This document shows positions 47,117 to 59,862 of a stretch of DNA of 64,000 nt, in pieces (the stretch's first letter is position 1; every line of letters begins with the position of its first letter). The DNA comes from an uncultured Nitrososphaerota archaeon (GTDB taxonomy: Archaea; Thermoproteota; Nitrososphaeria; Nitrososphaerales; Gagatemarchaeaceae). A program made the translations under genes and the position numbers. Below the pieces are notes generated by a model. That model did not search any database, was not told the DNA's origin, and saw only the letters and a program-made list of their open reading frames with translations. Location of the stretch: NCBI GenBank assembly GCA_963838925.1, contig CAWISW010000002.1, forward strand, positions 288,001-352,000, in the 5' to 3' direction.

Positions 47117-47500
47117 CTACATCACCGTTCTCGTATTGATCCGCCCTTGCCTCGCCGCGCACGCGTCGCACTCGCACATGTCCAGGAGGTACTGGTAAGG
47201 ATAGATTCCCGTGCTGTGCCCGTCAGACCAAGCGAACGCGATGGCGTATCTTCCCACCATCGTGTAAGCTGTGGCCGCTATCCCCGCGGGAGCTGCCGGG
47301 ATGAGCGGGATCACGCGACTGACGCCGATTGCCGGCGGCTCACCAGCGCACATGGCGCAGGGGCAGGCCTCGCGCAGCCTTCCGTTCGAGCTGAGCCACA
47401 GGTGGCCGTCGCTCCACTCGATGGACACGCTCTTCTCGCCCAGTGAAACCTTCCGAGGGACCGGCAAAACCAGGTGCTCGGAAGCCCGTCCCCCACTCAT
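47117..47500 (-). CDS. DUF971 / GBBH-N-like protein
   Basis: I.WSDGH, LREACPCAMC, VGRYAI.F.WSDGHSTGIY; extra C-terminal CECDAC. Confidence 0.85.
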   Translation of the reverse strand: MSGGRASEHLVLPVPRKVSLGEKSVSIEWSDGHLWLSSNGRLREACPCAMCAGEPPAIGVSRVIPLIPAAPAGIAATAYTMVGRYAIAFAWSDGHSTGIYPYQYLLDMCECDACAARQGRINTRTVM

Positions 47501-47599
47501 AAGGCTTGGCGTCGAACCAACGACGCTCGACGGTGTTCGTCCGGCCCGTCTCCCTCAGGGAAACGGTTATCTCTCCCTCGCGGGGCCTGACCTCCGCTC

Positions 47600-47989
47600 T
47601 TGGCGAAACTTTCAGACAAGGCGAAGAGGCTGCTGACGGGGAAGAACTTTGCCTTCGTCGCGACCCTCAACAAGGACGGGAGCACCCAGCTCACGCCCAC
47701 GTGGGTCGATACCGACGGGGAGAACGTCCTTGTCAACACCGCCTTGGGGAGGATGAAGACAATCAACGTGACGAGGGACCCGAGGATCACCGTCGGGGTC
47801 TTTGACCAGGCGAACCCCTACGAATACGTGTCCATCCGAGGCAAGGTCGCAAAGCAGGTGAAGGGAAAGGAGGCGGACGACCACATAGACAAGCTCGCGC
47901 TCAAGTACACGGGAGCCACGAAGTACAAGAGGTCTGCGCCAGGCGAGAAGAGAGTCCTCCTCGTGATACACCCCTCCAAGGTAATCTGA
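47600..47989 (+). CDS. PPOX-class (putative F420-dependent) oxidoreductase
   Basis: FAFVATLNKDGS.Q.TP.W, NT..GR.K..N..RDPR, NPY.YV.IRG, LA.KY.G, R....I.P. Confidence 0.88.
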   Translation: MAKLSDKAKRLLTGKNFAFVATLNKDGSTQLTPTWVDTDGENVLVNTALGRMKTINVTRDPRITVGVFDQANPYEYVSIRGKVAKQVKGKEADDHIDKLALKYTGATKYKRSAPGEKRVLLVIHPSKVI

Positions 47990-50927: not shown

Positions 50928-51950
50928 TTGACAGAGTACCGCGTTTCACTGACGGGTCTTCACGCAAGGAACGAGAAGACCATCCAGGCCACCCAGGACT
51001 GGGAGAGGAGCAGGATAAACGAGGCTGCGTTGAAAGCCTGCTTCGACAAGGACTGCGACTCCCTGGTCGAGCTACAGAAGCGGGTGGGTGCCGAATACAT
51101 CACCGACGGGCAGATCACGCTTGCGTGGCAGGACCTCTTCAGGCCGATCAGCTCGGGGTTCGAAGGGCTCGAGCCAGGTCCCATGGTGAGGTGGTTCAAC
51201 ACGAACACCTTCTTCTACGCGCCTATAGTGAAGGGAGCGATCTCGAGCGACGGCAAGGTACTCTCGAGGGCCATCGAGAAGAGGTTCGTCAACCACGGCT
51301 CCGCACTGAAGATAGTGCTGCCTGACCCGCTCACATTCGCGGAGCTGGCCGAGGACAGATTCTACGGCAGCAAGGAGAAGCTCCTCTTCGCTTACACGGA
51401 CGCCATAAGGGGGGAGCTGCGGACCCTGTCAAAGGTAGGTGTGAAGTACGTCCAGTTCTCCGCCCCGAGCCTCGTCTACAGGCTGAAGCAGAAGCCCTTC
51501 TCGCGCGCAGGGCTCAGGCAGCTGGGCGAGGCGGTAAGGAACGCGCTCAAGGGGGTCTCTCTGAGGAGCGGCTTCTACCCGCTCTTTGGGGACGCGTCTC
51601 CCTACCTGCCAGAGCTCCTCGACGTCATTCCCACGGACGACATCGGCATCGACCTGACGCAGACGGACGACTCCTCGCTGTCAGCGACGAGCAAGGGGAT
51701 CATCGCCGGGATAGTCGACTCCCGGACCACCTACCTCGAGGACGTGGCGTCGCTCGCCTCTCGCGTCGAGAGGGTCGCCGACAGGACCGCCGCCAGCACG
51801 CTCACGCTCGCCCCTTCCGCCGACCTCAGGTACATCCCCCGGGTCAGCGCGGACGAGAAGCTCGAGCTCCTCGGCAGACTGAGGTCTCGGGTAAAGAGGG
51901 GACGCGAGACGCCCAGCGCGCCGAAACCAGCGAGGAGGGGAGCGAAGTGA
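50928..51950 (+). CDS. Split MetE N-terminal-type (non-catalytic) barrel
   Basis: ITDGQ...W.DLF.P, RWFNTNTFF (cf. MetE KWFDTNYHY), LP.PLTF, GI.D.R.T..E, APSADL; no Zn ligands; TTG 50928. Confidence 0.8.
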   Translation: MTEYRVSLTGLHARNEKTIQATQDWERSRINEAALKACFDKDCDSLVELQKRVGAEYITDGQITLAWQDLFRPISSGFEGLEPGPMVRWFNTNTFFYAPIVKGAISSDGKVLSRAIEKRFVNHGSALKIVLPDPLTFAELAEDRFYGSKEKLLFAYTDAIRGELRTLSKVGVKYVQFSAPSLVYRLKQKPFSRAGLRQLGEAVRNALKGVSLRSGFYPLFGDASPYLPELLDVIPTDDIGIDLTQTDDSSLSATSKGIIAGIVDSRTTYLEDVASLASRVERVADRTAASTLTLAPSADLRYIPRVSADEKLELLGRLRSRVKRGRETPSAPKPARRGAK

Positions 51951-53140
51951 AGGCCTTCCCCACCCAGGAGATAGGGAGCCTCCCGAAGTTCTCGTGGAGG
52001 ACCAAGCCGTTCAGGCAGATGGCGCTCACGGACGACGACCTCGAGTCCGCGAGAGTGTGGGGAGACCGCCTCAAGGTCGACGGACGGAACGACCTCCACC
52101 GGCTGCTCTCCAAGCGCTATGCCTTCACCGACGAGGAGAAGAAGCGCATAGTCGACTTCTCACTCCTGTACGCGATCAGGATGTGCGAGACAGCCGGGCA
52201 CGGCCTCGCCAAGGAACCGGGGCTCGACCTGGTTTGGAGCGGCGAGCAGGCGAGGACCGAGATGTACGAGACGCCCGTCTCCAACATCGCGGGCTTCGAG
52301 TTCGTGGGGAGGGTGAGGAGCTTCGACAACAAGTACTGGAGGATGGCCTCAATCCGGTCCGCTCCAAAGTACAAGGAGAACTACCACCTCGACGAGCTCC
52401 TGTTCACCGAGGAGAACGCCGAGCGCAAGGTCAAAGTCCCCGTCACCGACGCCATCACGATAATGGCGTGGTCGGACAACAACTACTACACGGGCAAGTG
52501 GGCGGACAAGTCCGGGCTCTCGCCTTCGAAGAGGAGCTTCAGCGCCAGGCGCGAGTTCACCCTCGAGCTGGCCAAGATAATCCGGAGGGTCATCAGGGAG
52601 CTGATCGAGAAGGGGGTCGAGGAGGTGCAGATCGACATACCCGCCGCGACACAGTACCAGTCCGACGACGACATCAAGCTCGTCGCCGAGTCGTTCAACG
52701 AGACGACGAAGGGGCTGGACGCCACTTTCAGCGTCCACAGCTGCTTCCCACCCAGCATCGGCTATGGCATCCTCTTCCCCCACCTCCTCGAGATGAAGAA
52801 GTGCGAGCGCTTCTCCCTCGAGTACGGCAACCGTGACACCTTCGAGAAGGGTCTGGACGCCAAGTCCAGGACCGGCTTCGAGGACCTCAAGCTCTTCAAG
52901 GAGTACGGCTACAAGAGGCAGCTGGGCGTCGGGGTCATCCACATACACACCGACACCCTGCCAAGCGTCGAGGTGGTGCGAGACCGCATCCTCTACTCTG
53001 CGAAGGTCACGGACCTCCCGCCGGAGAACCTCTACGTCAACCCGGACTGCGGCCTTCGCACGAGGCGCCCAGAGATAGCCCAGAAGATGCTCGACCTGGT
53101 GGTCGGCGGCGCCGAGCTCGCGAGGGGCAAGTCCGGATGA
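51947..53140 (+). CDS. metE: Cobalamin-independent methionine synthase catalytic barrel (split MetE C-half)
   Basis: FPTQEIGSLP, GEQ.R.EM.E, VRSFDN.YWR, QID.PA, Zn ligands VHSC, LEY, NPDCGLRTR. Confidence 0.85.
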   Translation: MKAFPTQEIGSLPKFSWRTKPFRQMALTDDDLESARVWGDRLKVDGRNDLHRLLSKRYAFTDEEKKRIVDFSLLYAIRMCETAGHGLAKEPGLDLVWSGEQARTEMYETPVSNIAGFEFVGRVRSFDNKYWRMASIRSAPKYKENYHLDELLFTEENAERKVKVPVTDAITIMAWSDNNYYTGKWADKSGLSPSKRSFSARREFTLELAKIIRRVIRELIEKGVEEVQIDIPAATQYQSDDDIKLVAESFNETTKGLDATFSVHSCFPPSIGYGILFPHLLEMKKCERFSLEYGNRDTFEKGLDAKSRTGFEDLKLFKEYGYKRQLGVGVIHIHTDTLPSVEVVRDRILYSAKVTDLPPENLYVNPDCGLRTRRPEIAQKMLDLVVGGAELARGKSG

Positions 53141-54387
53141 TCCCACGGGTCACGACCATAGGGAGCTACCCGACGTTCCCACGGGCGGAGGACGTCGAGT
53201 ACTACTACACCATCTCGAGGCACGGCCTCGGCGGGGAGGTTGTCGACCCCTACCTCTGGTCGATGGAGGAGGCGCTCAAGGACTTCACGTCCGCGGGCGT
53301 GGACGTGCCGTCGACGGGCCAGTCCAGGGGCGACCTTTACTCGCTCTTCTTGGAGCCGAAGTTCGTCAAGGGGATAACGTGGCAGGGAGCCGACGCCTAC
53401 GTCAACGGGAAGATCGAGCGGACCGGCTCGATCCGCCTGGCGGACGTCCGCCACGCGAGGAGCGTCCTCCCCCCCCACTACGAGCTGAAGGAGCCGATAA
53501 CAGACGCCTACACTCTCGCCAGGTTCGCCAAGATCAACACCAGCAGCTACGCTGACACCAGGGAGCTCGCGCGAGAGATAAACAAGAAGATCATCATACC
53601 GGAGATCGAGGACCTCCAGGCGAGCGGGGCGGTCTCCTGGCTCCAGCTCGACTCGCCCACCATCGCCGCCGAGTCCTCCACCCCTGACTACATCCAAGGG
53701 CTCTACGAGGAGGTCGCGGCCGCCGCGAAGGTCCCCGTAGTCGTGCACGCTTGCGGGGACGCGGTGAGGATCTTCTCCTCCCTGCTCACGAAGCTGAAGG
53801 TCGACACGATCTCGCTCGACTTTTACCACTACCCCAAGCTCTTCGAGGAGGCGGGCAAGAAGAGCTACGACCAGAAGATAGGGCTGGGCTGCACCGACAG
53901 CCAGAGCATGAGGGTCGAGACCGTGGACGAGACCAGGCGGCTGATAGCCTTCGCGGAGGCGCGCCTCGGCAAGGACCGGATCCAGTTCGTCCACCCTCAC
54001 TGCGGCCAGAGGAACCTGAACCGCGAGATAGCCTACGAGAAGAACGTGGTGCTCGCGTTGGCGCGGGACGACGCGTGCTTCGGGGAGGCGGAGGAGGCCT
54101 CGGCCTCCCACCTCACCTCCAAGGAGTACGACCCGGGCGGCTACTTCCTCGTCTCGGTGAGCAGGGAGACGAAGGAGATAGTGGTCGCCTACTACACCTA
54201 CGACCACACGGCGAAGAAGAGGTACCGCTCCAAGTCAGCGGAGCGCCTCTTCCAGACCCTCAACGACGAGGCCGACACCCTCGGCCTGAGCCGCAGGCAC
54301 CTCTCGTACCTCACGCTGGAGCTCGGACGCGCGGAGGCGTCGATCGCCTCTGGGACCCAGTCCTACCGCCAGAAAGTGATAGAGTGA
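53137..54387 (+). CDS. Second MetE/MesA-like Zn barrel fused to a C-terminal DUF4346-like domain
   Basis: TTIGSYP, STGQ.RGD, QLDSP, VHACGD, GLGC.D, HPHCGQ; from about 54121 YDPGGYFLV...EIVV..Y...HLSYL..ELGRAE.....SYRQ. Confidence 0.72.
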   Translation: MIPRVTTIGSYPTFPRAEDVEYYYTISRHGLGGEVVDPYLWSMEEALKDFTSAGVDVPSTGQSRGDLYSLFLEPKFVKGITWQGADAYVNGKIERTGSIRLADVRHARSVLPPHYELKEPITDAYTLARFAKINTSSYADTRELAREINKKIIIPEIEDLQASGAVSWLQLDSPTIAAESSTPDYIQGLYEEVAAAAKVPVVVHACGDAVRIFSSLLTKLKVDTISLDFYHYPKLFEEAGKKSYDQKIGLGCTDSQSMRVETVDETRRLIAFAEARLGKDRIQFVHPHCGQRNLNREIAYEKNVVLALARDDACFGEAEEASASHLTSKEYDPGGYFLVSVSRETKEIVVAYYTYDHTAKKRYRSKSAERLFQTLNDEADTLGLSRRHLSYLTLELGRAEASIASGTQSYRQKVIE

Positions 54388-55263
54388 TTGAGGCTAGCGG
54401 AGCGCCTTAAGAGGGGCATCTTCACCACCGTCGTCGAGATCTTCCCGCCCAACTTCAGCGCCGAGACGGCCAAGGAGCCGCTCCTGGGCCTGAGGCAGAA
54501 GACGCAGGACGTCGTCTCGAGGGTGAGGAAGGTCGAGAACCTCGTGGACTGCTTCGTCGTCGCTGACATGAAGGACCTCGGGAGGCTGAAGCTGTCCAGC
54601 ATCTACACCGCGGCCATGCTGAAGCATGAGCTCGACACGGAAGTAATCCCCGTCATAGCTGTGAGGGACGCCAACCGGTCTGGGGTAAGGACCCTCTTCC
54701 TCACCGCCCTCTCGTACGGGCTCGACTCCGTGATGCTGGTCTGGGGGGACAAGTACAACGAGGGAGAGGGCTCCGCCAACGTCTACGACTACCCTTCGCT
54801 CTCTGATGCGATCAAGGAGATGAGGGCGCTCGCGGACAGGGCGAACGTCGAAGCCACCATCCTCGCCCCGGTCAACGTGGCCGCGCTGGAGACGAAGAGG
54901 GGCGCCGCGATAGCGTCGTCCCGCCTCGAGAGCGGGGCGGACTGCCTTCTCGCCCAGCCGCCAACGTCCGACATCTCGGTCACGCTGCCGGAGCACCTCC
55001 GCCTCCTCGACGGGAAGGGCATGAGGCCGAACGTCCTGCTCAACGTCTTCCCGTTCAGGGACAAGGAGGACATCGACTCCTGCAGGGCCCGGTTCGGCTG
55101 GAAGATACCCGACGTGGCGGACAGGATCGCCCAAGAAGGCGGGGAGGCCGGCCTGATCAGGGAATCCAAGATGGTCGTGGAGAAGATGCGGGAGAGCGGG
55201 CTCCCCGGGGTATACGTATCGACGAGGGGCAGGCCGGAGCTCGCGCGGTTCATCCTCGACTAG
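54388..55263 (+). CDS. Divergent methylenetetrahydrofolate reductase family protein
   Basis: VEIFPP, IP....RD.NR, LVWGD, ..GAD...AQP; abuts the previous stop (TGATTG). Confidence 0.75.
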   Translation: MRLAERLKRGIFTTVVEIFPPNFSAETAKEPLLGLRQKTQDVVSRVRKVENLVDCFVVADMKDLGRLKLSSIYTAAMLKHELDTEVIPVIAVRDANRSGVRTLFLTALSYGLDSVMLVWGDKYNEGEGSANVYDYPSLSDAIKEMRALADRANVEATILAPVNVAALETKRGAAIASSRLESGADCLLAQPPTSDISVTLPEHLRLLDGKGMRPNVLLNVFPFRDKEDIDSCRARFGWKIPDVADRIAQEGGEAGLIRESKMVVEKMRESGLPGVYVSTRGRPELARFILD

Positions 55264-56123: not shown

Positions 56124-57224
56124 TTGCCACAAAGTTTTGTCACCAAACTGAAGGACGCATCTCAAGCTTACACCTTCCGCGACTTTATCCTGCTCCCAGG
56201 GAGGAGCGAAGTCGAGCCCAGGGACATCGACCTCTCCTCGAACCTCACGAAGCACATCAAGCTCAGCCTCCCCTTCGTCTCCTCGCCCATGGACACGGTC
56301 ACCGAGTGGAGGATGGCAGTCGAGCTCGCGAGGATTGGCGCCGCGGGCGCTATCCACAGGAACATGAGCACCGAGAGCCAGGTCGAGCAGGTGAAGAAGG
56401 CGAAGGCGGCCAAGGTCCAGGCGAAGTCCGTCGACGAGAAGGGCAGGCCGCTGGTGGGGGCCTCGGTCTCGCCTCTCGACACGAAGCGCTGCGAGGCGCT
56501 GGACAGGGTCGCCGACTTCCTGGTCTCAGACGTCGCCCACTTCCACAACTCAAACCTGCTGAAGGTGACCGCGAGGCTCCTTCCCAACCTGAGCAAGGAC
56601 TTCATCGCGGGCAACATCGGCACGAAACGGGCGGTCCGCGACATCATCACGGAGCTGCCGCGCGTAGACGGGTTCAGGGTGGGCATAGGCTCGGGCTCCG
56701 TCTGCATCACCTCGGAGGTGACGAGGGTGGGGGCGCCGACCCTCTTCGCGGTCTCGGAGGTGGCGACGGCCGTCAGCGAACTCAACGCCGACGTCCCGAT
56801 AATCGCGGACGGCGGGATCCGCGGCGCGGGCGACGCGTCCCTCGCGCTGGCTGCGGGGGCATCCACCGTGATGCTCGGCTCGATGCTCGCCGGCTGCGAC
56901 GAGTCGCCCACGAAGGTGATCGTAAAGAACGGCAAGAAGATGAAGGTCCACAGGGGGATGGCCAGCGCCGCGGCCCGGAACGTGCGCTTCGCCCTCGACA
57001 GGTACAGCGTTCCCGCCAAGGGGCTCGAGGAGGGCGTGGAGGCCTACGTCGCGTACTCTGGCAAGACCGCGGACGTCATCGCGAAGGTCGAGAACGGGCT
57101 GAAGGCGTCGTTCGGGTACTCCGGCGCGAAGAGCGTGAGCGACCTCTGGAGCGTCGCCTCCTTCGGCTACGTCTCTCCCCAGGGCACCTCCGAGCTCGGA
57201 GTCCACTCTCTTACCCTGAAGTGA
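56124..57224 (+). CDS. guaB: IMP dehydrogenase (no CBS domains)
   Basis: SSPMDTVTE, IHRN, GIGSGSVCIT (catalytic Cys), IIADGGI, MLGSMLAG, RGM.S, EGVE; adjacent to guaA. Confidence 0.9.
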   Translation: MPQSFVTKLKDASQAYTFRDFILLPGRSEVEPRDIDLSSNLTKHIKLSLPFVSSPMDTVTEWRMAVELARIGAAGAIHRNMSTESQVEQVKKAKAAKVQAKSVDEKGRPLVGASVSPLDTKRCEALDRVADFLVSDVAHFHNSNLLKVTARLLPNLSKDFIAGNIGTKRAVRDIITELPRVDGFRVGIGSGSVCITSEVTRVGAPTLFAVSEVATAVSELNADVPIIADGGIRGAGDASLALAAGASTVMLGSMLAGCDESPTKVIVKNGKKMKVHRGMASAAARNVRFALDRYSVPAKGLEEGVEAYVAYSGKTADVIAKVENGLKASFGYSGAKSVSDLWSVASFGYVSPQGTSELGVHSLTLK

Positions 57225-57245
57225 GAGTGCTTGCGCGCTTCGAGC

Positions 57246-58862
57246 ATGACCGAGACAAAGACAAGAAACCCCGCGAGCACGCCCGGAAAGGCGAAAGGTG
57301 AGGGTGCCAGGAGGGACCTGCAGCTCCTCCGCGGAGGCGTCGCAGTCCTCGACTTTGGGGGCCAGTACTCACACCTCATCGCCAGGAGGATAAGGGGCCT
57401 GGGGGTGTACGCGGCCCTCCTTCCCTTCGACACCTCGGCGAGCTCGCTGAAGGAGATGGGAGTGAAGGGCGTCGTCCTATCGGGAGGCCCCTCGAGCGTC
57501 TACGGTCCCGGGGCCCCGCATCCGGACAAGGCGATATTCTCGGGGGACGTCCCGTTGCTCGGCATCTGCTACGGCTACCAACTCCTCGTCCAGGCGCACG
57601 GCGGCGAGGTGAAACGGGTGCCGAAGAGGGAATACGGCAAGGCCAAGGTGAAGATAACAGACCGCGGGAGCATCTTCAACGGGATAAGCAGTGACAGCAT
57701 CACCTGCTGGATGAGCCACGGCGACTCCGCGACCAAGCTCCCGCCCGGACTCGCAGCGATGGCCACAAGCGACAACTCGCCATATGCCGCGATCCGAACC
57801 GCCGACGGCCGGCAGTTCGGAGTCCAGTTCCACCCCGAGGTGGTCCACACGGAGCACGGCGGCGAGATCCTCTCGAACTTCGTGTTCGGCGTCTGCCGCG
57901 CGGAGCGCAGGTGGAGCATGGAGGGGTTCCTAGGGGAGACTCTCCGCGAGCTGCGGCAGACACCAGAGGGCAGGGTGCTGTGCGCAGTCTCGGGCGGGGT
58001 GGACTCCTCGGTCGCCTCCGTCCTCCTCAACAAGGCGCTCCACGAGAGGCTGCAGTGCGTCTTCATCGACACGGGCCTGCTGAGGGAGGGGGAGGGAGCC
58101 GAAGTCTCCAAGTTCCTCAAGCACGACCTCGGGGTCCCTCTCGAGTTCATCGACGCGTCGACGAGGTTCCTGAGCGCGCTGAAGGGGGTCTCCGACCCCG
58201 AGAAGAAGAGGAAGATCATCGGGAGGGTATTCGCTGAGGAGTTCGAGGAGTACGCGAGGAAGAAGGGGCCGTTCAGGTACCTGGCCCAGGGCACGCTCTA
58301 TCCAGACGTGATCGAGAGCGGCCAGACCAACGCCCCCGCCTCCGTCATAAAGACCCACCACAACGTCGGCGGTCTCCCCAAGGACCTGAGGATGGAGCTC
58401 ATCGAGCCGCTGCGAGAGCTCTACAAGGACGAGGTGAGGGCGCTGGGCTCGCTCCTCGGGCTGCCACCGGAGGTCCTGAAGCGCCACCCCTTCCCCGGCC
58501 CGGGGCTCGCCGTCAGGATAATCGGGGAGGTCACCCCGGAGAAGGTGCGCATGTGCAGGGGCGCCAACCTCATCGTCGAGGAGGTCATGCGCGAGGAGGG
58601 GCTCTACGACAAGGTCTGGCAGGCGTTCGCCTACCTGGGGGACGACCACGTCACCGGGGTGCTGGGGGACGAGCGCAGGGTCGGCGCACAGGTCACCGTG
58701 CGTGCCGTCGAGTCGGTCGACGCCATGACCGCAGACTGGTACCGCATGCCCTACGACGTCATGGAGAGGATCTCGAGCAGGATAACAAACGAGGTTGACG
58801 GGGTCGTGAGCGTGGCCTACTCCATCTCCTCGAAGCCTCCGGCCACGATCGAGCCCCAGTGA
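57246..58862 (+). CDS. guaA: GMP synthase (fused GATase and synthetase)
   Basis: LDFGGQY, GICYG.Q, QFHPEV, SGGVDSSV, QGTLYPDVIES, IKTHHNVGGLP, HPFPGPGL, KPPATIE. Confidence 0.97.
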   Translation: MTETKTRNPASTPGKAKGEGARRDLQLLRGGVAVLDFGGQYSHLIARRIRGLGVYAALLPFDTSASSLKEMGVKGVVLSGGPSSVYGPGAPHPDKAIFSGDVPLLGICYGYQLLVQAHGGEVKRVPKREYGKAKVKITDRGSIFNGISSDSITCWMSHGDSATKLPPGLAAMATSDNSPYAAIRTADGRQFGVQFHPEVVHTEHGGEILSNFVFGVCRAERRWSMEGFLGETLRELRQTPEGRVLCAVSGGVDSSVASVLLNKALHERLQCVFIDTGLLREGEGAEVSKFLKHDLGVPLEFIDASTRFLSALKGVSDPEKKRKIIGRVFAEEFEEYARKKGPFRYLAQGTLYPDVIESGQTNAPASVIKTHHNVGGLPKDLRMELIEPLRELYKDEVRALGSLLGLPPEVLKRHPFPGPGLAVRIIGEVTPEKVRMCRGANLIVEEVMREEGLYDKVWQAFAYLGDDHVTGVLGDERRVGAQVTVRAVESVDAMTADWYRMPYDVMERISSRITNEVDGVVSVAYSISSKPPATIEPQ

Positions 58863-58875
58863 GCGCTGATCGAAG

Positions 58876-59862
58876 ATGCCCGTGTTCCTAGGCCCGCAGA
58901 CAGCCCTCGCGGAGCTCCACGTCCACCTGGGGAGCTCGGTCGACCCGGCCGTGATGTGGGAGATAGCCCACGCCCAGGGCATCCGACTTCCGACGAAGGA
59001 CTACTGGCGGTTCGTGGACATGATCACGGTCAACCCCAGGAAGGTGAAGTCGTTCGAGGACTACCTCGCGCTCTTCCACTGGACCGAGCTCATCCAGTCC
59101 AGCCCCCTCGCGATCGAGAACTCGGTCTATCACACCATAGCCGGGGCCTACCGCAAGAACAACATCACCCTCATAGAGCTGAGGTTCAACCCGATGAAGA
59201 GGAACCGCGGAGGGGAGAGGGACCTCGACCAGATCATGATGGCCGCGGGGCGGGGGCTCGACAGGGCGTCTGCGGAGTACCCCGTCAAGAGCGGCATAAT
59301 CATCTGCCTGGACAGGACCTTCGACCAGCACCTGAACGAGATCCTCCTCGAGAAGGCCCTGAAGTACAAGAACAGGGGCGTGGTCGGCATCGACATCGCC
59401 GGGTCGGCCAGGAAGGGCTTCCGCTACTCGGACTGCAAGGGCCTCTACAGGAGGGCGCGCAAGGAGGGGCTGGGCCTGACGGTCCACGCAGGGGAGGACG
59501 AGGGCCACAACTCCGTGCGAGACGTCCTGGCGCACCTGGAGCCCCAGAGGATAGGCCACGGGGTGAGGGCCACGGAGGACGCCGAGACACTGGAGATGCT
59601 GCGCGAGAGGGGTGTCACCCTCGAGCTCTGCCCCTCGTCCAACCTCAACACGCGCGTCCTGAAGGGCGTGGGGGACATGAAGCGGGTCTTCAGGGAGCTG
59701 AACAGGAGCAAGGTGAAGTACACGATCAACACCGACGGCCCCGAGATGCTCCTGACCAACCTGAGGAACGAGATAGACTTCCTACTCAGGAACGGCATCC
59801 TCAAGGAGAGCGACGTGCTCCGCGCCAACAGGAACGCTTTCGCGGCTTCCTTCATCCAGTAG
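58876..59862 (+). CDS. add: Adenosine/adenine deaminase family protein
   Basis: ELHVHLGSS, ELRF.P, VVGIDIAG, TVHAGE, RIGHG, ELCPSSN, INTD.P. Confidence 0.9.
   Translation: MPVFLGPQTALAELHVHLGSSVDPAVMWEIAHAQGIRLPTKDYWRFVDMITVNPRKVKSFEDYLALFHWTELIQSSPLAIENSVYHTIAGAYRKNNITLIELRFNPMKRNRGGERDLDQIMMAAGRGLDRASAEYPVKSGIIICLDRTFDQHLNEILLEKALKYKNRGVVGIDIAGSARKGFRYSDCKGLYRRARKEGLGLTVHAGEDEGHNSVRDVLAHLEPQRIGHGVRATEDAETLEMLRERGVTLELCPSSNLNTRVLKGVGDMKRVFRELNRSKVKYTINTDGPEMLLTNLRNEIDFLLRNGILKESDVLRANRNAFAASFIQ

Follow-up and report, generated by a model that had tools for sequence, protein, structure and literature searches.

The window analysed here is a 64,000-nucleotide stretch of a Nitrososphaerota genome from the GTDB family Gagatemarchaeaceae (contig CAWISW010000002.1). 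Four tightly coupled genes, g1 to g4, lie on its forward strand at positions 50928-55263. Judged from their sequences, they most likely form an operon in which a split MetE is combined with a second, DUF4346-bearing core methionine synthase that is coupled to its own methylene-tetrahydrofolate reductase (MTHFR). The split MetE half of the operon is an ordinary, known system; the putative second methionine synthase, with its barrel fused to DUF4346, is undescribed. The features of the locus are:

50928..51950, + strand (open reading frame from 50883): g1, non-catalytic N-half of split MetE, 340 residues from the TTG at 50928
51947..53140, + strand: g2, catalytic half of split MetE, 397 residues
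53137..54387, + strand: g3, whole gene, 416 residues
53137..54090, + strand: barrel of g3, a core methionine-synthase (MetE C-type) TIM barrel, residues 1 to about 318
54130..54372, + strand: C-terminal PF14251 (PterinBD-DUF4346) domain of g3, residues 332-412
54388..55263, + strand: g4, divergent MTHFR homologue, 291 residues
50856..50863, + strand: TATA-like box (cttataag) 5' of g1, read by eye from the letters; a possible operon promoter

An original prediction, made from the letters of the window, had proposed four coupled genes with GTGA, ATGA and TGATTG junctions, and this was confirmed by the open reading frames and by reading of the junctions. The g1 stop overlaps the g2 start at GTGA, the g2 stop overlaps the g3 start at ATGA, and the TTG start of g4 abuts the g3 stop at TGATTG. 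The TTG start of g1 agrees with the N-terminus common to 20 homologues, and the GC content at third codon positions of the four open reading frames is 0.85-0.93. Profile scores and ligand residues bore out the gene identities that had been proposed (a Zn-less N-half, a catalytic C-half, a second Zn-type barrel and an MTHFR-like protein). For g3, the description as a Zn-type barrel held, but the C-terminal PF14251 domain, which is its distinguishing feature, had been overlooked.

The core-type barrel of g3, its DUF4346 domain and g4

The barrel of g3 matched PF01717 with 71.9 bits. An AlphaFold2 model of g3, built with 32 homologues (predicted local distance difference test, pLDDT, 92.4; predicted template modelling score 0.86), was found by Foldseek to be most similar to the C-barrel of Thermotoga maritima MetE (1xpg, E 1.4e-19), with MesD (3rpd) also among the best PDB matches. 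Residues H204, C206 and C289 are invariant in the 32 homologues, position 228 holds Asp, with Glu taking its place in distant members, and the putative homocysteine-contacting residues S10, Q62 and D172 are kept throughout. The Zn-ligand spacing of g3, 2/22/61 (204/206/228/289), is the same as that of MesA (216/218/240/301) and E. coli MetE (641/643/665/726), whereas MesB and MesC show spacings of 2/19/76 and 2/19/89, respectively (Price, Deutschbauer & Arkin 2021, PMC7857596; Price 2021 below). Q62 occupies the position of E. coli Glu484, where Gln is the state of MesA and MesC (Price 2021). HMMER alignment with T. maritima MetE, of low confidence in this stretch, puts a Phe of g3 at Trp539 and leaves positions 493 and 496 without a basic residue. 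In the T. maritima enzyme, Trp539 stacks the pterin, and Arg493 and Arg496 hold the first glutamate of the folate tail (Pejchal & Ludwig).

A search of 1.84 billion cluster representatives with g3 gave 243 matches at E <=1e-3. Among the 150 matches listed, seven are at least 400 residues long and align over both the barrel and the C-terminal domain, and the others are unfused proteins of about 300 residues at no more than 37% identity, or fragments. The named members of the fused clusters belong to Nitrososphaerota, one Nanoarchaeota metagenome-assembled genome (MAG) and one Acidobacteriota MAG. A phylum-wide search of 401 genomes found, outside the family of the window, only unfused relatives at up to 34% identity. 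Profile scores, the cluster search and the tree (see below) place g3 in no characterised family, as the original prediction had anticipated.

The C-terminal domain of g3 matched PF14251 with 50 bits against a cut-off of 29.6, and g3 is the only protein with such a match in the genome of the window. Comparison of 21 homologues, down to 31% identity, revealed invariant D, G, F, H, Y, E, A and Q residues, plus near-invariant Arg residues. PF14251 was matched in 45 of 150 other Thermoproteota genomes (at least 90% complete), and the partners of the domain were surveyed in 17 of the 30 loci listed from those genomes. Twelve partners are dihydropteroate synthase (DHPS)-like (nine by Pterin_bind and three by TIGR00284), two are thymidylate-synthase-like and one is MtrA-like, and two proteins have an N-terminal part of no recognised family. 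Pterin enzymes make up 14 of the 17 partners and, as judged from these assignments, the shared trait of the partners is pterin/folate chemistry. The domain is also present in the control organisms Synechococcus and Sulfolobus, both of which lack MtrA; its conservation where MtrA is absent argues against a role solely in MtrA docking.

Several DUF4346 proteins of other Thermoproteota have individual features. Two thymidylate-synthase-like proteins end in the domain (L212:1492-3027, with a weak MtrA-like N-terminal match, and L215:352-1737), as does an MtrA-like protein (L199:1243-1749). Two 415-residue proteins carry the domain at their end (L224:487-1734 and L225:487-1734), and their N-terminal parts of about 335 residues matched nothing in Pfam or NCBIfam and do not resemble the barrel of g3.

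Foldseek comparison of the DUF4346 model (pLDDT 86) with the PDB gave a best E of 0.046, and a wide VIA-align search gave a best Z of 7.0, for ribosomal PSRP-3-like chains, which lies in the noise range of that tool. The domain profile had no match among PDB sequences at E up to 10, and an ESM Atlas feature search with g3 residues 325-416 returned no usable match. This lack of structural relatives does not show that the fold is new. The possibility that DUF4346 is a remnant of the MetE N-barrel was dropped because its hhalign probability against the g1 N-half was only 0.1. A literature search found nothing describing DUF4346, PF14251 or this architecture.

The g4 protein scored 21.2 bits against PF02219, below the 24-bit gathering cut-off, and many of its homologues, close ones included, carry PF02219 in precomputed annotation. 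A profile of its family (21 members) matched the solved MTHFRs 6fcx (1.5e-12), 1v93 (8e-12) and 3fst (3e-9). The 21 homologues show no variation at E17 (in E-x-F-P-P), D121 (in G-D) or Q190, which we take to be the equivalents of E28, D120 and Q183 of E. coli MetF. The segments that serve FAD in canonical MTHFRs are divergent in g4 ('HMTC' is aligned to 'ITVR', and R-G-D reads W-G-D), and its N-terminal 67 residues align poorly to MTHFRs.

The split MetE genes and the shared TDAxT motif

The g1 protein matched PF08267 with 51.8 bits, above the cut-off of that family, compared to 15.7 bits for PF01717. Its residues at the Zn-ligand positions are F/G, D and S rather than H/C/C, indicating that g1 is Zn-less. 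In g2, the ligands H-x-C, E and C, the PDCG motif, and the Ser/Glu/Asp homocysteine contacts are all present. The g2 protein scored 208 bits against NF002272 and 201 bits against NF003317, both under the curated cut-offs; neither profile is METE_PYRFU, the reference of the published split-MetE threshold of at least 200 bits (Price 2021). The two genes are adjacent and each encodes no more than 400 residues, as is the case for members of the split-MetE family. Aligned to T. maritima MetE by HMMER, g2 retains Trp at Trp539 and has Lys/Arg at Arg493/Arg496. The pair g1 and g2 would constitute an ordinary archaeal split MetE using methyl-folate.

At four loci (L137, L138, L158 and L159), the catalytic half of split MetE belongs to a strongly divergent lineage with about 29% identity to g2. 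These g2 homologues have F-D-L-E-W-P-R at the usual Glu/Gln homocysteine contact and no equivalent of Trp539, and H-x-C, E and C are kept.

The original prediction had pointed to an unusual TDAxT motif in genes 2 and 3, in place of TGPxT. The shared motif is real (VTDAIT in g2 and ITDAYT in g3), and its residues co-vary between the two genes. The T of T-G-P was identified as T. maritima Thr531, counted back from Trp539 in the g2 HMMER alignment. Thr531 belongs to the relay of the folate site: when substrate binds, it forms a hydrogen bond to Met468 of the DMV loop and fixes the rotamer that Trp539 adopts for folate (Pejchal & Ludwig). The two residues after this Thr were paired across 48 Nitrososphaerota loci, taken from species-representative genomes, plus the window. 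D-A was found in both g2 and g3 in 29 cases, the window included (with g1 reading P-D-P in 26, P-S-P in two and lying off the contig in one), D-P in both at two loci, and G-P in g2 with D-P in g3 at eight loci. The G-to-D change (PDP) is also seen in g1, at 28 loci plus the window. The divergent g2 proteins of L137/L138 and L158/L159 have D-A where the neighbouring g3 has D-A, and D-P where it has D-P. At the level of sequence, this covariation is compatible with an adaptation of the two barrels to a common donor, or with gene conversion at the locus.

Conservation, modularity and lineage

The order g1-g2-g3-g4 on one strand, whose lack in relatives the original prediction had named among its refuting conditions, was found at 40 of the 48 loci. 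Six loci are cut by contig ends and are consistent as far as visible, and two deviate, L144 having g3-g4 only and L147 having MTHFR-g3 with neither g1 nor g2. An MTHFR gene adjoins g3 at 46 of the 47 loci where the contig shows it. In the genome of L147 (1.0 Mb, of unstated completeness), g3 is the sole PF01717 match. Among the 97 genomes of the window's GTDB family, g2 and g3 were each found in 39, and the two sets differ only at G441 (g2 only) and G438 (a weak, unfused g3 match only). Of the 55 genomes of the largest genus, five have g2 and the same five have g3, which indicates that the operon comes and goes as a unit.

The remaining 56 of the 97 family genomes match neither g2 nor g3, complete ones included. 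One of them, G445, is 100% complete on one contig, and its sole B12-binding match is a 164-residue open frame of the size of the methylmalonyl-CoA mutase (MCM) small subunits inspected elsewhere. Family archaea that have neither gene may be auxotrophs or users of an unrecognised methionine synthase.

The operon can be divided into two parts. Compared with the window, the g1 and g2 proteins of L137/L138 are 29-32% identical, whereas g3 is 59-60% and g4 50-53% identical. The tree joins g1 of L137 to g1 of L158 and g2 of L137 to g2 of L158 (support 100 each), whereas it places g3 of L137 inside the class of the window and g3 of L158 outside. This discordance, together with the L144 and L147 loci, separates g1-g2 from g3-g4 and indicates, on comparative evidence, that they behave as two modules rather than as one three-barrel complex. 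The three-barrel complex or extra methyl-transfer step suggested in the original prediction finds no support in these loci. A complex prediction of g3 with g1 scored 0.00 (mark 0.32); it was run without controls and is evidence in neither direction.

The tree comprised 76 author-chosen rows and 307 columns, with 23 of the 48 fused loci left out, and was computed by an IQ-TREE quick search under LG+G4 with Shimodaira-Hasegawa-like approximate likelihood ratio (SH-aLRT) support only. Three separate groups were recovered, the g1 type with other N-halves (99), the g2 type of split-MetE catalytic halves (99) and all core-type barrels (95), which argues that g3 is no recent copy of g2. Nineteen Nitrososphaerota fused proteins form one clade (support 100) within a weakly resolved 31-row group (support 92) that contains every fused protein, seven unfused proteins and two Thermoplasmata proteins. 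The Methanopyrus protein that served as a MesA proxy, by taxon alone since MesA was placed in Methanopyrales (Price 2021), branches at another point of the core group. By published residue numbers, NCBIfam scores and this taxon proxy, g3 is not demonstrably MesA, MesB, MesC or MesD.

The two Thermoplasmata relatives have informative surroundings. Locus L167 of a Thermoplasmatales MAG reads mtrA, mtrH, core barrel and DUF4346, the last being a separate 114-residue open reading frame that overlaps the barrel stop. Locus L161 of a Thermoplasmata MAG reads MTHFR, mtrA, core barrel and a 103-residue DUF4346 open reading frame 17 nt downstream. The barrel is the sole PF01717 match in both genomes, and the one MtrA that each genome has is encoded next to it. 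This linkage fits the prediction of Price 2021 that MtrA is the methyl source of MesA. In L161, mtrA and the core barrel are separated by about 930 nt (L161:4311-5245) in which the operon strand has no intact open reading frame of at least 90 residues, and which could represent a degraded or frameshifted mtrH.

MtrA was found in none of the 97 family genomes, nor in the genomes of L144, L147 and the Acidobacteriota fusion (G497, G498 and G501). In the genome of the window, which is 87% complete, MtrH, PF02310, PF00809 and CobS were not found. A B12-binding protein (PF02310) is present in 88 of the 97 family genomes. At all three PF02310 loci inspected it is the MCM small subunit, beside the MCM large subunit and MeaB, and the other PF02310 matches lie in open frames of 500-670 residues. 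A full-length FolP-type DHPS (Pterin_bind, about 170-197 bits) was found in 14 of 22 congeners. Because most congeners have the MCM B12-binding subunit and FolP-type DHPS, the absences in the incomplete assembly of the window are unreliable, and the notion that its genome is free of cobamide and DHPS was rejected. The gene content of the relatives indicates that the lineage probably uses folate and has cobamide in the cell. The alternative one-carbon carrier raised in the original prediction is not needed, since the FolP-type protein occurs in those 14 congeners. The family was described as aerobic heterotrophs in the Gagatemarchaeaceae paper, the main text of which makes no mention of methionine, cobalamin, B12, folate or methanopterin; its supplements might list such genes.

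The flanks of the operon are unrelated to it. On the 5' side lie genes for a gamma-glutamyltranspeptidase and a 3-hydroxyisobutyrate-dehydrogenase-like protein, and on the 3' side an NTP-transferase, an inosine monophosphate dehydrogenase (IMPDH)-like gene, GMP synthase and adenosine deaminase. The last three form a purine-salvage run at 56124-59862, which starts with a 366-residue IMPDH/GMP-reductase-domain protein and adjoins the operon in many relatives too. Further 5' of the operon, two genes on opposite strands at 47117-47989 encode a GBBH-like_N protein of small size and a PNPOx-like (FMN/F420-type) protein. A sequencing-run search returned only soil and peat DNA runs, with no RNA data.

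The methyl donor of g3 and relation to known methionine synthases

The reading that we favour, and to which we give an even chance, is that g3 is a second methionine synthase that receives its methyl group from the methyl-folate made by g4, with DUF4346 providing donor binding. In this mechanism, g4 would reduce methylene- to methyl-tetrahydrofolate, and the core-type Zn/homocysteine barrel of g3, which appears to lack MetE's own folate-tail contacts, would rely on the fused DUF4346 to bind the pterin/folate donor or its anionic tail. Homocysteine would then be methylated directly from methyl-folate, without the MtrA carrier of the Thermoplasmata relatives. Support comes from the conserved catalytic residues of g3, from its adjacent MTHFR (in L144 and L147 even with no split MetE alongside), from the pterin enzymes that predominate among the partners of DUF4346, from the occurrence of the domain in control organisms that lack MtrA, and from its strong conservation in a family where MtrA was not found. 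The folate-site residues that g2 keeps and g3 lacks in the alignment to T. maritima MetE, the motif covariation next to Thr531, and the FolP-type DHPS of congeners count in the same direction.

Several points weigh against this. The methyl donor, the role of DUF4346 and the catalysis of g3 and g4 are predictions from sequence and gene context. In vitro, the core synthases characterised so far accept methyl groups from methylcobalamin and not from methyl-pterins (Price 2021). The nearest g3 relatives with informative context are linked to the corrinoid protein MtrA, and their cassettes contain DUF4346 though MtrH already binds pterin, which is a poor fit to a simple donor-binding role. The lineage appears to use cobamide, as seen from the B12-binding MCM small subunit in most family genomes, so cobamide dependence is conceivable. 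The 'PterinBD' label is Pfam's own, and no paper was found behind the name; for DUF4346 itself there is neither a solved structure nor a clear structural relative. Shared ancestry confounds the motif covariation, which eight loci do not follow. Finally, two synthases for one reaction in one operon are an unexplained redundancy.

This redundancy would be accounted for if g3 were the cobamide-dependent branch of a MetH/MetE-like pair, using methyl-cobamide on a carrier or free, with split MetE as the cobamide-independent backup and g4 feeding both. We regard this explanation as unlikely, yet it is the strongest of the competitors. The MTHFR-mtrA and mtrA-mtrH clusters of the Thermoplasmata, in which the core barrels are the sole PF01717 proteins, the in vitro use of methylcobalamin (Price 2021), and the B12-dependent MCM of 88 family genomes all speak for it. 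The family, however, shows no MtrA in 97 genomes, MtrH and CobS were not found in the 87%-complete genome of the window, and the PF02310 matches examined (3/3 loci) are MCM small subunits. The corrinoid iron-sulfur protein (CoFeSP) of the Wood-Ljungdahl pathway is an unlikely carrier because the family is described as aerobic heterotrophs, although no CoFeSP search was made.

A different resolution of the redundancy is that g3 is no methionine synthase and methylates another thiol or selenol, or demethylates a methylated sulfur compound and feeds one-carbon units to g4 in the oxidative direction. The MetE/URO-D superfamily includes other thiol methyltransferases, and g3 has weak matches to PF01208 and NF004889. 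This alternative is improbable, as the homocysteine-contacting Ser, Gln and Asp are patterned as in MesA and MesC and kept in the 32 homologues, and in three genomes g3-type proteins are the only PF01717 methionine-synthase candidates. The poorest prospect, and a very slight one, is that g1, g2 and g3 assemble into a single three-barrel methionine synthase of several subunits, or that g1 serves both catalytic barrels, for although the genes are tightly coupled in translation, the presence of g2 and g3 agrees in all family genomes except G441 and G438, and g1 shares the G-to-D change, g3 occurs with MTHFR without adjoining g1/g2 in L144 and L147, g1 and g2 diverge together and discordantly from g3 (L137/L138, L158), and the genomes of the Thermoplasmata relatives have neither an N-half nor a second PF01717 protein.

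Extending the favoured, methyl-folate-dependent reading of g3, we tentatively propose that DUF4346 is a compact folate/pterin (or tail) module whose fusion to a core barrel created an independent architecture, the third after MetH and the duplicated barrel of MetE, for methionine synthesis that depends on methyl-folate and not on cobalamin, and that the fused (MtrA-free) and split (MtrA-linked) forms record a switch between corrinoid-relayed and direct transfer within one clade. We hold this broader proposal to be possible but doubtful. The physiological methyl donors of core methionine synthases are only predicted so far (Price 2021), and the two settings amount to a natural experiment, in which the same barrel and accessory domain stand beside MtrA, or are fused in MtrA-free aerobic soil archaea beside MTHFR. 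Knowledge of the DUF4346 ligand would give a function to a domain that DHPS-like and thymidylate-synthase-like enzymes of archaea carry as well, would put the MesA-MtrA prediction to the test, and would sharpen calls of methionine and B12 dependence in metagenome-based metabolic models of abundant acid-soil Thaumarchaeota.

Among known systems, the archaeal split MetE of the PF1268/PF1269 type (Price 2021) resembles g1 and g2 in its adjacent N-half and catalytic half of no more than 400 residues each, and in its HCEC Zn site; g3 falls outside its catalytic clade. Elsewhere, split MetE is nearly always the sole form, with 106 of 107 split-MetE genomes lacking any other known methionine synthase (Price 2021), whereas here a second synthase-like barrel shares the operon. 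Split MetE and MesC are both listed as predictions (GapMind 2026).

MesA, the core synthase of methanogens, is like g3 a single MetE C-type barrel of about 300 residues with Gln at Glu484 and 2/22/61 spacing (Price 2021). Its Methanopyrus proxy lies in the same core clade (support 95), and its predicted donor is MtrA (Price 2021), the gene for which adjoins the Thermoplasmata relatives of g3. In contrast to MesA, g3 has Asp and not Glu as the third ligand, a fused DUF4346, an MTHFR pairing and a split MetE in the operon. It is 32% identical to the Methanopyrus cluster representative P0124, which stands for MesA by taxon only, the published criterion for MesA being about 40% identity or more (at least 174 bits) to METE_METTM (Price 2021). 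MesA was reported from methanogens only (Price 2021), whereas g3 occurs in non-methanogenic Nitrososphaerota of a family without MtrA.

MesB (HCDC, linked to CoFeSP; Price 2021) shares the Asp with g3, but the spacings are 2/19/76 and 2/22/61, respectively. MesC has His (or Tyr) at Cys643 and a spacing of 2/19/89 (Price 2021), whereas C206 of g3 is invariant, and MesD, which has MesX (DUF1852) as its partner, keeps Glu484 where g3 has Gln. The MesC-like proteins of MSBL-1 offer a precedent for a core-type barrel in a split-MetE genome, and these paralogues may have another function (Price 2021); they have Gly at Glu665, whereas g3 has H-x-C, Asp and a different ligand spacing.

The combination of a catalytic C-barrel with an extra module presumed to serve the methyl donor is shared by g3, T. 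maritima MetE (1xpg) and the Phaeocystis MetE-fusion (Rao et al. 2024, PMC10861871). The modules themselves are different: MetE has a duplicated barrel, MetE-fusion has PP-binding and CzcO-type domains (PMC10861871), and g3 has a beta3-alpha domain of about 85 residues unrelated to the N-barrel. The cassette of mtrA, mtrH, core metE and DUF4346 (L167; with MTHFR in L161) belongs to the same core clade and has the same DUF4346 domain as g3. In the cassette, however, DUF4346 is a separate gene of 103-114 residues accompanied by MtrA, with or without MtrH, whereas at the g3 locus DUF4346 is fused to the barrel, neither MtrA nor MtrH was found, and a split MetE is added.

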